A DNA stretch of 64,000 nt from a virus (lineage: Duplodnaviria > Caudoviricetes), in IMG/VR virus record IMGVR_UViG_3300032247_000689, positions 31,816-95,815 of that record. One strand, written 5' to 3'. Under the pieces are notes generated by a model. The model did no database searches and was not told the origin of the DNA. It saw nothing but the letters and a program-made list of their open reading frames with translations. The position numbers and the translations under genes are program-made. Of the stretch, positions 8,785 through 31,932 are shown piece after piece (the first letter of the stretch is position 1; each line of letters starts with the position of its first letter).

Positions 8785-8910
8785 TTACATCTCATCTTTC
8801 TTATGCTTCCGTTTCCTAGTGTATCGCTTCTTATTCTTTATGGGGGTAGCGGAATTACTACGGCGTAACTCTAATAAACGGCGTAGTTCCTCTGCTGACT
8901 TCTTAAACAT
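8785..8910 (-). CDS. Basic 41-aa protein with an ArfA-like C-terminal motif (not in the ORF track)
   Basis: MFKKSAEELRRLLELRRSNSATPIKNKKRYTRKRKHKKDEM; SD AAGGA. Confidence 0.6.
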   Translation of the reverse strand: MFKKSAEELRRLLELRRSNSATPIKNKKRYTRKRKHKKDEM

Positions 8911-8930: not shown

Positions 8931-9009
8931 ATAACCCTAGCGCGTACTACGTCCTTAGTGTGTCGAACGGTACGTTGCAAGTCAATTCGCGTAATCGCGC
9001 TAGGGTTAT
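8931..9009. repeat. 14-bp perfect inverted repeat enclosing a promoter-like spacer
   Basis: ATAACCCTAGCGCG (8931-8944) / CGCGCTAGGGTTAT (8996-9009). Confidence 0.75.
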
Positions 9010-9012
9010 TCT

Positions 9013-9173
9013 GTAACTCAATAGGTACTGCGCTTTCGTGTCTATCATTTACTCGATACTATGCTGGCGAAACTATACTGCTGGTTACGGCTATCATAGT
9101 TTTCACCGTAATCCGTCGCGTTGTTATGGAGTAAGACCCTGTTTCATAGGCTAGACCAATCCTATTAAGTAAC
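9013..9173 (-). ncRNA. Putative structured RNA, unit A of a tandem pair
   Basis: Closing stem GUUACUUAAUAGG/CCUAUUGAGUUAC; shares UAGGAUUGGUC and CGCAGUACCUA with unit B. Confidence 0.5.
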
Positions 9174-9179
9174 TTTGCA

Positions 9180-9338
9180 CCCCGTTAGGTACTGCGACAC
9201 CATAGTTCACTCGAATCTATTACATAAACTCATTGGAACACTTTTGCTAATTGCCTATTGCCTTATTAAAGATAGCCCATGCCTATCTCATTGGGGCTCA
9301 CGTTCGCCATGTGGGGCTCTTGACCAATCCTAACGGGG
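9180..9338 (-). ncRNA. Putative structured RNA, unit B of a tandem pair
   Basis: Closing stem CCCCGUUAGG/CCUAACGGGG; same conserved 11-mers; length 159 vs 161 nt. Confidence 0.5.
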
Positions 9339-9358
9339 AATCCTCTATGTAGTTTTAT

Positions 9359-9973
9359 TTACCAACTCGCTTGGTAGTGGTAATCGTACTCTCCCTCAAT
9401 ATCACTCGCAAGTATTGAGTTAATCGTCTCTGCTGTCTCTGCAAGTTCACGATAGTAATACTCGTCCTTATCGGTACTACCGAAAAAGAATCCTGATACG
9501 GGTGGGATAGGGTCATCGCCTTCATCAAGGATAACCCTACTCGAACGCGCTGTCTCTTTGGCAAACGCTTCCATAATAGATTTGACCGTACTGTTCTCTG
9601 AACCCGAATCTATTGTATAAACTTCTGAATCTTGAGTAGGTACTGCCTTATGCCTATCCTGTAAGCCTACGACACACGCGTTACGCAACGCGATAAGGTC
9701 GTCTCTGCTCATTGAGATACGCTGGCACTCATCTACGCCGTTGGCGCAGTTGCGAACTATCCAACCGTGAATAGCGTTAGCCTTACGCCAATACGCTACG
9801 CACTTAGTAACTCTAACGCTACCGTATTCTGCGGTCGGTATCGAGTTTAGACCCGACGCTTCGATAACATTATCGTATTCAAGATTATCTTTGCGAGTCA
9901 TTTCGCCATTAACGCTCTCGAAGTCATACGCGCTTATGTGCTTCTCTGCATATAGGTACATATCTAATCCCAT
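9359..9973 (-). CDS. Conserved phage protein (MGLDMYL...YWRKANAIHGW...YQASW family)
   Basis: Recognisable widespread phage family of unknown function. Confidence 0.8.
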   Translation of the reverse strand: MGLDMYLYAEKHISAYDFESVNGEMTRKDNLEYDNVIEASGLNSIPTAEYGSVRVTKCVAYWRKANAIHGWIVRNCANGVDECQRISMSRDDLIALRNACVVGLQDRHKAVPTQDSEVYTIDSGSENSTVKSIMEAFAKETARSSRVILDEGDDPIPPVSGFFFGSTDKDEYYYRELAETAETINSILASDIEGEYDYHYQASW

Positions 9974-10407: not shown

Positions 10408-12288
10408 TCATGCGACCCTGTTTGTGTTGAGCGTGGATTTGACTAGGCTCTGCGCCACTTCAAGAACGTCCTTTGGCTCGGCAACCGCGTGAAAGATACT
10501 CGCGCCATGATTTATACGCTTGATAGTGCTTCGCGCAGACTCGCCATAATCATCTCCGAGACGGCTCTGCTCTAATAATTCTTGGTAATACTTATATCCA
10601 CCTAAGAATACTACGCAAGTGATGAAGCCCTTATCGTTTAAGGATTTAATAATCGCGTTGCAATCATCGTCCATATCCCACTCGCCGTCGGTAACTATGA
10701 AGGCTAACTTTATCGAACGCTTGCTCATAGTGAGAATACGCTCTGCTTCAATTAAGCCACGAATAGGATTAGTGCTACCCGAAGCGTGGAGATAACGATA
10801 GGTACTAGGCTTAGCCTTGTCCTTCTTGTCATAGATAAGGCTACTCTCATGGTTGAAAGATATAGTAGTCACGTTGCCGTTGATACCTTCGATACCGCGC
10901 TTGATAATCCACGCGTTCTCCATGACCGAGCGCATGAGCCCACCCATACTGCTACTGTGGTCGGTTAAGATTACCGCTTCAATATCTGTATTAGGGTTAC
11001 CCGTATCCCATTGGTCGAACATGGTACGGATAGAGTTCACGTTAGGGCTCATGGTACGGGTGATATTTAACTTACCGCGCGCGTTAAACTTATCCCACTT
11101 AGGGTCGCCGTTGCGAACGATACGCTCTAATTCTTGACCGAAGCGACGGGCAATCGAGCGCGCTGACTCTGATACGCTCATCTCTGAACATGATACCTGC
11201 TTAACCGCACCGCGTACTTCGTCGCTATTAAGGATAGCCTTACGCGTTTCATTGACTTCGCGCTTGATAGTTTCGTTTTCCTTGATAGCCTTCATGCGGT
11301 TATTGAGTAACTTAGAGATAGCCTTATCTTTATCGTCGAACTCTACGTCCGCGCCTTCGTAAGTGCCGTCTCCACCCACGCCGACATTAGGATTATTACC
11401 GATAGTTTCGATAGGGTTATCCTTGTTCATGCGAGCGTTGCGTTCTTGTAAGCGTTCTTGCTCTGCGTTCTTTGCAGGACGACCCTTTACAGGGAACTCG
11501 CAACCGCCATGTGGGGGTAGGTGAATCTCACCCTGTTGCTCATCTAAGCCGACAATCTCTGCCATGCGAGCGATAAGCACCTTAGCCTTATCGAAGTCGG
11601 CAGGGAATACCAATACGCGATAGGCGTGGATAAGTGTGTGTAGTTCTTGCGCTAAGGCTACGCCATGAGTAGCGATAAACTCATCTGCAACCGCTTGGCG
11701 TACTTCGATAGGTAGATAGGTGCGACCCGTAATAATATGGAAGTAATTGCCAATCGTATCTTGATTATCGAGTAGGTACTGCGTGGTCGCGCTCTCTAGG
11801 AATAGTCGAGTCACGGGATATTTAGCCACTAGTAACGCTTCCGCGCGCGCTTCCTCTAGGATATAGGTTGCGCGACGGTACTTATTATCCTTGACATATT
11901 GGATAAGGTTACTTCCTGCGCGTGGCGAGAATAGAACGTGAGCGACTTCGTGGTAGTTGAGCCCGTGAAGGTGCATGATATTATCTTGAGATACATCTGC
12001 AATAAGGTTATCGTTAAATATAATCTCGCGACCGTTGCTCATAGCATTAGTTTCCATAGACGGGTCATTAACTACCGATACGGTTAGTTCAGAGTCGCCC
12101 GTGATAATTCTATCGGCGCGCTGATATACCGCGCTGATAGCGTTAAGGCGGTTAGCCCTATCCTGATAGTCGGCGAGAATATTCTCTCTAGTGCGACCGA
12201 ACTCGTCGGTCGCACCCCACCGTAAGTCTCCGCTTTCTAGGGCAGAGAGTTCATCGTTGTATCTAGCCCTAGCCACGAAGCACCTCAT
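10408..12288 (-). CDS. Zincin-motif + VWA domain protein (CobT-like partner of a MoxR ATPase)
   Basis: HEVAH (HExxH); MIDAS DHSSSM, T(NP), VTDG. Confidence 0.8.
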   Translation of the reverse strand: MRCFVARARYNDELSALESGDLRWGATDEFGRTRENILADYQDRANRLNAISAVYQRADRIITGDSELTVSVVNDPSMETNAMSNGREIIFNDNLIADVSQDNIMHLHGLNYHEVAHVLFSPRAGSNLIQYVKDNKYRRATYILEEARAEALLVAKYPVTRLFLESATTQYLLDNQDTIGNYFHIITGRTYLPIEVRQAVADEFIATHGVALAQELHTLIHAYRVLVFPADFDKAKVLIARMAEIVGLDEQQGEIHLPPHGGCEFPVKGRPAKNAEQERLQERNARMNKDNPIETIGNNPNVGVGGDGTYEGADVEFDDKDKAISKLLNNRMKAIKENETIKREVNETRKAILNSDEVRGAVKQVSCSEMSVSESARSIARRFGQELERIVRNGDPKWDKFNARGKLNITRTMSPNVNSIRTMFDQWDTGNPNTDIEAVILTDHSSSMGGLMRSVMENAWIIKRGIEGINGNVTTISFNHESSLIYDKKDKAKPSTYRYLHASGSTNPIRGLIEAERILTMSKRSIKLAFIVTDGEWDMDDDCNAIIKSLNDKGFITCVVFLGGYKYYQELLEQSRLGDDYGESARSTIKRINHGASIFHAVAEPKDVLEVAQSLVKSTLNTNRVA

Positions 12289-13153
12289 TGAAGTAGTTCA
12301 TATCTGCTTGGCGGTATCCCATAGACTCTAGGATATTGTCCTTATGTGTATCACACGCTAGGCGTACCCCACCGCGCTCCTCACGGTTGAAGCCATTAAC
12401 GAAGGACATAATTGCGAAGTCCACGTCGAAGTTGCGAGCGTTATTTATGAAGGCAACGAGCGAACGGGTTGAGATAGGGGTAGATAACTCCTCTTTAGCG
12501 TATTGCTCGCGAAGTTGGTCGGCTAGGATTAGAAGTGCTTTATTACCGACTACCTTGTTCTCGATAGCCCTATCGTAAGGGAACTCCAACTTAATATGGA
12601 AGCGGTCATTGAAGGCTTGGTTGAGTTCTTGTGTGCCTTTATAGCCATAGTTCATATCGGCTACGATTAGTAAGTCCTTATGCGCCTTGATTACTTCGCC
12701 ACCGTTCTCCAATAGTTGAATCTCACGGCGGTAATCGAGAAGTGAGAATAGGACGGTAGAGACACGGGTAGGGAGAAAGTTCACCTCATTGAGAAGTAAT
12801 ACGCCACCATGTCGGACGATTTGGGTAACTGCACCGTCCTGCCAACGATAACCCTGTCCGTCTGCGCGTGGAATCCATGCGCCGAATAGTTGAGAAGGGT
12901 CGATAGCATTAGAGTTCGATACATTGAAGTAACGCATACCCTTAGCCGAAGCATAACTCTGAACGGCGATAGTCTTACCGCTACCTGCTTCACCTTCGAT
13001 AAGGATATTAGTGCCGTCGGCAAGCGCGCGGTCAAAGATTTCCCACTCGGTTTTACGTCCGAAGTGGCGGTTGATATACCCGTGAGATAGAGATATATCG
13101 GGTACTGTAATCATGGAGTAGGTCATATCCTGCTCATTGGTCGTTGTATTCAT
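12269..13153 (-). CDS. MoxR/CbbQ/CobS-like AAA+ ATPase (start moved to ATG 13153)
   Basis: Walker A GEAGSGKT; WQDG; Walker B variant LLLNE; AFNDRF; STR sensor II; SD AGGAAGG. Confidence 0.85.
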   Translation of the reverse strand: MNTTTNEQDMTYSMITVPDISLSHGYINRHFGRKTEWEIFDRALADGTNILIEGEAGSGKTIAVQSYASAKGMRYFNVSNSNAIDPSQLFGAWIPRADGQGYRWQDGAVTQIVRHGGVLLLNEVNFLPTRVSTVLFSLLDYRREIQLLENGGEVIKAHKDLLIVADMNYGYKGTQELNQAFNDRFHIKLEFPYDRAIENKVVGNKALLILADQLREQYAKEELSTPISTRSLVAFINNARNFDVDFAIMSFVNGFNREERGGVRLACDTHKDNILESMGYRQADMNYFNEVLRG

Positions 13154-13205
13154 TGTGCCTTCCTGTGCGCCATTGGCGCGGTTATGGGTTTGCCTTACAT
13201 AGAGA

Positions 13206-13234
13206 AAGATAGGGGAAGGGATAGGTATAGGCAA
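13206..13234 (-). promoter_or_regulatory. SigA-type promoter of the MoxR-VWA operon
   Basis: TTGCCT-N17-TATCTT on the minus strand, downstream of an ATAAC pair at 13255/13266. Confidence 0.5.
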
Positions 13235-31725: not shown

Positions 31726-31932
31726 ATGGTTAAGTGCGACAACTGCGTGAATCCAGCCTCCTACACACAGGCTGACCCTGGAGTTAATCCAGTCAACTAT
31801 TGCCAAAAGTGTTTACCTGGATGGTTACACAGCCGCGCACTTGCTGGACACTTCCCACTTGTAGAGCCTGTAGCGGATGCTCCAAAAACAACAAGACGGA
31901 AGAAAGCAGCATCCTCAGATGAGAGTGATTAG
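31726..31932 (+). CDS. Small Zn-finger protein (leaderless)
   Basis: TATACT-N6-ATG; CDNC...CQKC. Confidence 0.65.
   Translation: MVKCDNCVNPASYTQADPGVNPVNYCQKCLPGWLHSRALAGHFPLVEPVADAPKTTRRKKAASSDESD

Follow-up and report, generated by a model that had tools for sequence, protein, structure and literature searches.

Two structured RNA units lie head to tail in a gap between genes of an uncultured freshwater phage, and they belong, as judged by comparison of sequences, to a family of phage structured RNAs that is absent from Rfam and is supported by homologous units with covarying stems. We analyzed a 64,000-nucleotide (nt) stretch, here called the window, from IMG/VR virus IMGVR_UViG_3300032247_000689 (positions 31,816 to 95,815), which is a complete genome of 95,815 bp with 123-bp terminal repeats; coordinates given without a locus code are those of the window. 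The two units, B and A, are on the minus strand just after the gene for a 204-residue protein, p204, and a short unit, C, begins 3 nt past unit A and carries the same handle, a 4-bp helix with one bulged base that sits on top of the closing stem of each unit. Their positions are as follows.

9180–9338, minus strand: unit B, type-1 structured RNA of 159 nt, closed by a 10-bp stem, with the AUUG/CAGU helix, one bulged A and an interior of several hairpins
9319–9332, minus strand: unit B handle, 5′ half, UAGG-AUUG-GUCAAG
9186–9196, minus strand: unit B handle, 3′ half, CG-CAGU-A(bulge)-CCUA
9013–9173, minus strand: unit A, type-1 structured RNA of 161 nt with a perfectly paired core at 9016–9170
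9151–9164, minus strand: unit A handle, 5′ half, UAGG-AUUG-GUCUAG
9022–9032, minus strand: unit A handle, 3′ half, CG-CAGU-A(bulge)-CCUA
8931–9009, minus strand: unit C, short unit of 79 nt whose 14-bp stem is followed by AUUA/UAGU and a bulged A, with ACG ahead of the 3′ strand of the helix

On the minus strand unit B reads CCCCGUUAGG-AUUG-GUCAAG ... CG-CAGU-A-CCUAACGGGG and unit A reads (GUU)ACUUAAUAGG-AUUG-GUCUAG ... CG-CAGU-A-CCUAUUGAGU(UAC). The AUUG and CAGU segments pair as A-U, U.G, U-A and G-C, leaving one A bulged out of the 3′ strand. An initial annotation of this DNA had described two such units, with shared starts and ends that pair around a bulged A and with outer stems that differ between them, and this description holds: the sequence is as given, each unit folds independently, the AUUG/CAGU fold is found in both, and the outer stems of A and B are unlike each other and each fully complementary. 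The 14-mer UAGGAUUGGUCWAG is present in exactly two copies in the 64 kb. There are exactly three copies of CGCAGUACCUA, the third of which (11773–11783, minus strand) lies in the gene for a protein with a VWA domain; it is accompanied by neither a partner motif nor a stem and is attributed to chance. Folding energy is unconvincing (z of −2.5 for unit B and −1.1 for unit A, with the opposite strands nearly as stable), and the case therefore rests on comparison with relatives.

The same RNA design is present in about ten related uncultured phages (contigs and loci coded L002, L003 and so on to L133), with one to three units per genome and always on the gene strand. A search for the pair of 11-mers, allowing up to two mismatches and not requiring pairing, found it in L003, L004 and L015 just after the p204 homologue, and the outer stems there are again complementary and again different in sequence. 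The initial annotation had proposed building a covariance model from the two units, and a covariance model, R1, does recover homologous units in relatives: searches with R1 and a structural descriptor gave 14 R1 matches of 42–107 bits (55.9 for unit B and 67.2 for unit A), all of them on the gene strand of loci of this clade. Type-1 units occur as pairs in L003, L051 and L132, as in the window, and singly in L004, L005, L106, L015, L019, L131 and L006, the last of these identified with the descriptor and by visual inspection and not recovered by R1; unit lengths range from 107 to about 175 nt. R1 had no match in 454 kb of distant loci that carry p204 and found no additional copies in the whole contigs of five relatives. 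An exact two-motif pattern search of IMG/VR and a blastn search of the region against GenBank phages were without matches. The units are directly downstream of the p204 gene in nine of 11 genomes (the window and eight of ten related type-1 contigs), the gene before them not being of the p204 type in L006 and L019.

The ends of each unit pair in a stem of 9–18 bp whose sequence is free, with the handle on top. The handle is a 4-bp helix, R-U-W-R opposite Y-W-G-U, with a nearly fixed U.G pair and one bulged purine on the 3′ strand. Over 25 units the first pair is R-U (A-U in nine, G.U in 15), the second is U.G in 22, the third is W-W (U-A in eight, A-U in 16), the fourth is R-Y (G-C in 13, A-U in eight, G.U in three), and the bulge is A in 21 and G in four. 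In type-1 units the handle leads into a junction with G-N-Y-A-G on the 5′ side, often followed by ACC, and (A)CG on the 3′ side. An alignment of 13 units over the 22 pairs of the closing helix has 217 of 217 cells paired, and both sides change in 17 of the 22 pairs; the covariation score is 0.64, compared to 0.21 for shuffles and 0.05–0.15 when the partner columns are slid. Wobble pairs (G.U or U.G) account for 15% of the helix cells (32/217) and would be A.C mismatches on the other strand, and the element is therefore an RNA of the gene strand; the earlier remark that wobble pairing works only on the minus strand thus extends to the family. Some members had been selected by pairing, and the test was therefore repeated with selection by the two sequence motifs only. 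Among 50 motif pairs at the right distance, 11 have 9–10 of ten outer pairs, all on the gene strand and in the expected place, and the other 39 have at most seven, with a distribution centred near four, the value expected by chance. Chance is thereby excluded. By eye, the handle was also considered as a K-turn, a sarcin-ricin (bulged-G) motif and a tetraloop receptor, and these readings were dropped because the helix positions covary as Watson-Crick or wobble pairs.

The interiors consist of 70–130 nt of hairpins that evolve fast and keep their pairing, and contain the motif SC(A)AUAG in eight of the 14 type-1 units, where about one is expected. Natural strain variants are available in contigs from three other samples, with about 90% identity to the stretch. 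There are 30-odd differences within units A and B, and all of these are interior, with none in the handles or outer stems. One example is a unit B hairpin in which UUUAU-GUA-AUAGA becomes CCUAC-GCA-GUAGG by two double compensatory changes and one change of U.G to C-G. In unit C, a change at 9009 breaks the terminal pair of the outer stem, and one at 8995 replaces A-U by G.U at the first handle pair, G.U being the alternative state in the family. Two proposals about the interiors fared less well. The segments AAACUAU and AUAGUUU, suggested to form a pseudoknot in unit A, can indeed pair, but as part of a longer, plain helix of 11 bp, GGUGAAAACUAU/AUAGUUUCGCC, which is the RNAalifold solution for three strain variants. 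The sequence UCGAGU(A/G)AA, described as common to the two units, is indeed present in both, but it is absent from every other family member, and in the same unit B strain variant UUCGAGU is changed to AGCGAGU.

The gap itself has been correctly described as lacking a credible open reading frame. The 440 bases between the p204 stop codon and the start of the downstream gene p41 (minus strand) contain only short, non-credible frames, and the strain variants differ by one-base insertions or deletions at 9232 and after 9083, which rule out a conserved reading frame.

The handle is not confined to type-1 units, and is found on at least three cargo types including type 1, a second type and short hairpin-like units. 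Unit C (minimum free energy −33.7 kcal/mol, z −5.2), which the initial annotation did not include, is probably a third, short gene of this RNA class, and its stem sequence AACCCUAGCG recurs in unit 1 of L131 and in a short unit of L006. Because the same handle is on unit C and on at least two other cargo types in relatives, we describe the arrangement as a modular cassette. The second type, GGUGUAGGCG ... GGACUACUUAAA, is found in L004, L072–L074 and L079 and has no copy in the window. The G-N-Y-A-G junction is absent from the handle-bearing cargo types other than type 1. In L002, L100 and L133 the same slot holds a further RNA type, which has GCGCACAGCAACGG ... UUGCUGGU past the stem, a different junction and no bulged-A handle.

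L004:7281–7488, L072:3481–3624 and L079:3450–3593: second type, with handle and long closing stem
L015:2215 onward, 3′ end not determined: second-type sequence upstream of the AAA+ gene, handle unconfirmed
L131:7066–7209 (unit 2): tentative second type, with the 3′ handle CCUUCC-UUGU-A only; GGACUACUUAAA not found in L131
L002:4914–5060, L100:2987–3136 and L133:6427–6573: third RNA type in the same slot, with a 14–15 bp closing stem
9344–9354, minus strand: upstream leader motif AACUACAUAGA, 5 nt before unit B and one mismatch from AACUAAAUAGA
L002:4902, L003:7145, L004:7082 and 7270, L006:4395, L100:2976 and L133:6415: AACUAAAUAGA ahead of closing stems

The leader motif is shared among types. 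Its clade consensus, AACUAAAUAGA, which has stop codons in two frames, stands 0–10 nt ahead of many units of all types. In the loci retrieved it is found without mismatch 11 times, each time on the gene strand, versus 0.4 expected, and seven of the 11 are just ahead of a closing stem with a checked basal helix. An eighth, at L015:2215, is followed by type-2 sequence whose stem apparently lacks the handle. A promoter function for this 11-mer was rejected by inference, because a TANNNT −10 element would start transcription inside the 5′ stem strand; nor is the 11-mer a repeated promoter in this genome.

Searches for known RNA families were negative. With Rfam 15 at gathering thresholds there is no match in the window or within the units of 15 relatives' loci, which agrees with the suggestion of a novel phage non-coding RNA family, now with covarying homologues in relatives. 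At E≤10 there is one chance-level match in the window (E 2.7), outside the three units, and one in L004 (E 2.6) that overlaps two units. Hammerhead, twister, pistol, hatchet, HDV-like and hairpin ribozyme models have no match even at E≤10. A retron was ruled out since there is no adjacent reverse transcriptase gene. A search for antisense targets in the phage's own genome gave a longest complementary word of 13 nt, about that expected by chance. We note that L003:866–978 (minus strand) matches the Rfam Phe_leader model (57.9 bits, gathering threshold 55), which is probably spurious.

The proposal that the units mimic the elbow of a transfer RNA (tRNA) is not borne out. ARAGORN reports no tRNA or transfer-messenger RNA gene in the window or the whole 95.8-kb genome, and there is no tRNA-like Rfam match at E≤10. 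The T-loop sequence GUUCRA is in none of the 14 units and UUCRA is in one, window unit B, where it is lost in the strain variant. The GGUC.AG segment forms the closing-helix junction, where the conserved pattern is G-N-Y-A-G and not a D-loop. The slot after p204 does contain tRNA genes in distant relatives, with tRNA-Lys(UUU) at L086:1748–1820 and tRNA-Ile(UAU) plus tRNA-Lys(UUU) at L090:3011–3163, in each case about 40 nt after the p204 homologue, and in other distant relatives tRNA-Asp is a few hundred bases further on. These tRNA genes suggest that the slot is a place for stable RNA genes. In a separate group of loci (L083:3191–3276, and similarly L114, L117, L120 and L124) a conserved 86-nt long-stem element lies about 210 nt after the p204 homologue and is followed by a small GC hairpin; ARAGORN makes no tRNA call there.

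The genes around the units are on the same strand and include the following.

9359–9973, minus strand: p204, the upstream gene, 204 aa, PHROG 7971, function unknown
8785–8910, minus strand: p41, the downstream gene, 41 aa, very basic (..ELRRSNSATPIKNKKRYTRKRKHKK..), kept in relatives
10408–12288, minus strand: 'CobT-like' protein, 626 aa, combining an HExxH metallopeptidase motif with a VWA domain at the C terminus that has a DxSxS MIDAS motif
12269–13234, minus strand: MoxR/CobS-type AAA_5 ATPase, paired with the 626-aa VWA protein

Pfam and NCBIfam searches with p204 had no match, its AlphaFold model (pLDDT, the predicted local distance difference test, of 80) was not matched by Foldseek and gave VIA-align rows of middling score at most, the best being to DapD N-terminal domains (Z 7.1), and in the ESM Atlas it matched only viral hypothetical proteins. 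The p41 protein is rich in lysine and arginine with a pattern conserved in the clade, FKKSAEELRRLLELRRSNA..P..NKK.YTRK.KHK, and could be an RNA-binding peptide; its gene follows the RNA units in the window, L072–L074, L079 and L100, and is also present apart from units. The ATPase and VWA protein occur as a conserved pair throughout the clade and also in Gordonia and Brevibacterium phages. These are the only cultured relatives of the 626-aa protein (26–31% identity, annotated 'CobT-like'), and there are many uncultured ones, often on freshwater contigs of about 95 kb. Downstream of the units in the window are p41, a sigma-like protein and DenV. On the minus strand, the interval from p204 to p41 has neither a sigma-70-type promoter nor an intrinsic terminator. 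The position of the units inside a leftward block of small genes suggests early expression, as had been proposed. Candidate partners were sought in the phage genome, and TROVE/Ro60 (PF05731) and reverse transcriptase (PF00078) gave no match, although the controls were matched (Deinococcus and Bacteroides in the case of Ro60); RNase III and RtcB genes are likewise missing, with working controls. A search for a T7-type RNA polymerase also gave no match, but its control failed too and the result is uninformative.

Several known systems share some of these features. The T4 species 1 and 2 RNAs (rnaC and rnaD) are, like the putative RNA pair in the window, arranged head to tail, with a 6-nt spacer in both phages, and are stable non-tRNA species of about 120–140 nt and unknown function within the T4 tRNA gene cluster. 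However, rnaC ends in a tRNA-type T arm (GGGUUCGAAUCCC), which the window units do not, the T4 folds have neither a long closing stem nor a bulged-A handle, and there is no sequence likeness; the T4 pair is among tRNA genes, whereas the window phage has none, though the slot in its relatives does. RNase III stems in ribosomal RNA precursors and between T7 cistrons resemble the units in that the flanks of a stable RNA pair in a helix broken by a small bulge or loop inside a polycistronic transcript, but this clade retains both a structured cargo and a handle of specific sequence, Y-W-G-U-A opposite R-U-W-R.

Y RNAs (YrlA/YrlB, Yrn1) have an end-paired stem with a short protein-binding motif, a variable body and adjacent copies, and those of the YrlA type have a neighbouring Ro60 gene, a GNCGAAN0-1G motif close to the 5′ end, and T and D arms that hardly vary (PMC4201824). 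The window units have the long stem formed from 5′ and 3′ ends, but the GNCGAAN0-1G motif is in only three of 14 units, at internal positions 31–64, the Ro60 gene is absent, and in place of invariant T and D stem-loops what is conserved is a wobble helix of 4 bp plus a bulged A. Mycobacteriophages L5, D29 and StarStuff make an abundant stable early non-coding RNA whose role is unknown (PMC5712189). These are viruses of the actinophage type, and the nearest cultured kin of the window VWA protein are in Gordonia and Brevibacterium phages; the mycobacteriophage RNAs, unlike those of the window, come from about 500 bp at the genome end, and no shared motif is known, the sequences not having been compared. 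Since stable early RNAs are known in L5, D29 and StarStuff, it is not the general kind that is new here, but the family and its cassette design.

The explanation we favour, and to which we give about an even chance, is that the units are stable small RNAs released from an early transcript, with a handle that is read by a protein or ribonuclease (RNase). A host endonuclease would cut the units out of the polycistronic transcript, at the stem base or close to it, as happens to the tRNAs that occupy the same slot in distant relatives, and the units would then persist as stable small RNAs. Handle and junction are together the predicted binding site of one protein or RNase, and the RNAs may work in trans during host takeover, either as decoys or as small ribonucleoprotein particles; the differing free-sequence stems would let neighbouring units fold without cross-pairing. 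There being no RNase III gene in the phage, cutting of the RNase III type would need the host enzyme. The genes downstream differ between phages, as does the upstream gene in L006 and L019, which argues against a gene-specific leader or riboswitch. Several points weigh against released stable RNAs. We infer transcription, processing and stability alike, and none of the listed runs that hold the stretch is recorded as RNA. The thermodynamic signal of unit A taken alone is weak (z −1.1), the interiors have no common alignment or structure across the family (MAFFT, RNAalifold), and the shared functional core is limited to the handle, the junction and a short motif. No partner protein emerged, and the p204 family is widespread in phages and prophages of many phyla that lack the RNA. 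A part of the members was gathered with a descriptor that demands pairing, a selection bias that the motif-only test answers. A more far-reaching idea, which we consider unlikely, is that the handle is the common adaptor of a modular phage RNA system in which one protein, of the phage or the host, would recognize the wobble helix and its bulged A and so load, process or deploy interchangeable cargos that evolve fast. With at least three cargo types and one to four units per genome this would be analogous to the constant handle and variable body of guide RNAs and Y RNAs, and the system may be used for host takeover or for countering defences.

The main competing explanation, and one that seems rather unlikely to us, is that the units act in cis as intercistronic elements of the messenger RNA, either as RNase III-type processing sites or as stabilizers of 3′ ends. 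The decay or translation of the AAA+ ATPase, VWA and p204 genes would then be separated from that of p41, the sigma-like gene and DenV, and the interior would be without function. Their location inside an operon without a promoter or terminator of their own fits this. Also in favour, the units of several relatives directly adjoin the ribosome-binding site of the gene that follows, and many units come after a conserved AU-rich leader that contains stop codons in two frames. The outer stem plus handle measures 13–23 bp over 25 units, which agrees with the 1.5–2 turns or so of RNase III-type stems; the substrate size range of nucleases acting on double-stranded RNA covers stems of 13–23 bp. Unit C is barely more than a hairpin. 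However, a processing site does not need an interior of 70–130 nt with compensatory changes and an enriched motif, two or three different tandem units would be redundant for one cut, and the same slot holds tRNA genes, which encode stable trans-acting RNAs, in relatives.

It is quite improbable that the units are tRNA-elbow or Y-RNA-like molecules, with GGUC.AG as D-loop and UCGAGU as T-loop, that recruit tRNA enzymes or a host Ro60. The end-paired stem with a conserved motif and the variable body do resemble Y RNAs (PMC4201824), relatives have tRNA genes in the same slot, and UUGGUC is loosely like the GGUCCGA contacted by Ro60. But the phage has no TROVE/Ro60 gene, there is no conserved T or D arm and no tRNA-like domain by ARAGORN or Rfam, the Rsr motif GNCGAAN0-1G of the three units is never near the 5′ end, and the single T-loop candidate mutates in a variant. 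GUC is a cleavage triplet in some ribozymes, and a self-cleaving or catalytic RNA with the conserved junction as the active site that releases the units would account for the clustering of conserved bases there, beside the bulged A and wobble pairs, and for the tandem arrangement, which is like that of multimeric ribozyme transcripts. We regard this as very improbable, given the lack of any ribozyme model match, the presence of only about ten conserved positions, and the absence of the G-N-Y-A-G junction from the remaining handle-bearing cargo types. As perfect inverted repeats, the outer stems would form in DNA too, and could act as a cruciform or single-strand hairpin at an origin or recombination site; the 15% of G.U cells on the gene strand only, including the near-invariant U.G, and the occurrence of 14 of 14 model matches on that strand leave such a DNA-level element, or a chance likeness, with hardly any probability, the latter being excluded by the covariation and motif-only tests.

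Phages encode few stable RNAs besides tRNAs, and hardly any of these has an established function. The family described here is cleanly defined, has strong comparative support and is modular, with one handle, free stems and exchangeable cargos. It is confined to one intergenic slot, a fixed position that in relatives is occupied by tRNA genes, and it is a target for asking what role such RNAs have in early infection, by which route they are excised and which protein reads the handle. One or more families would be added to Rfam for use in the annotation of freshwater viromes.
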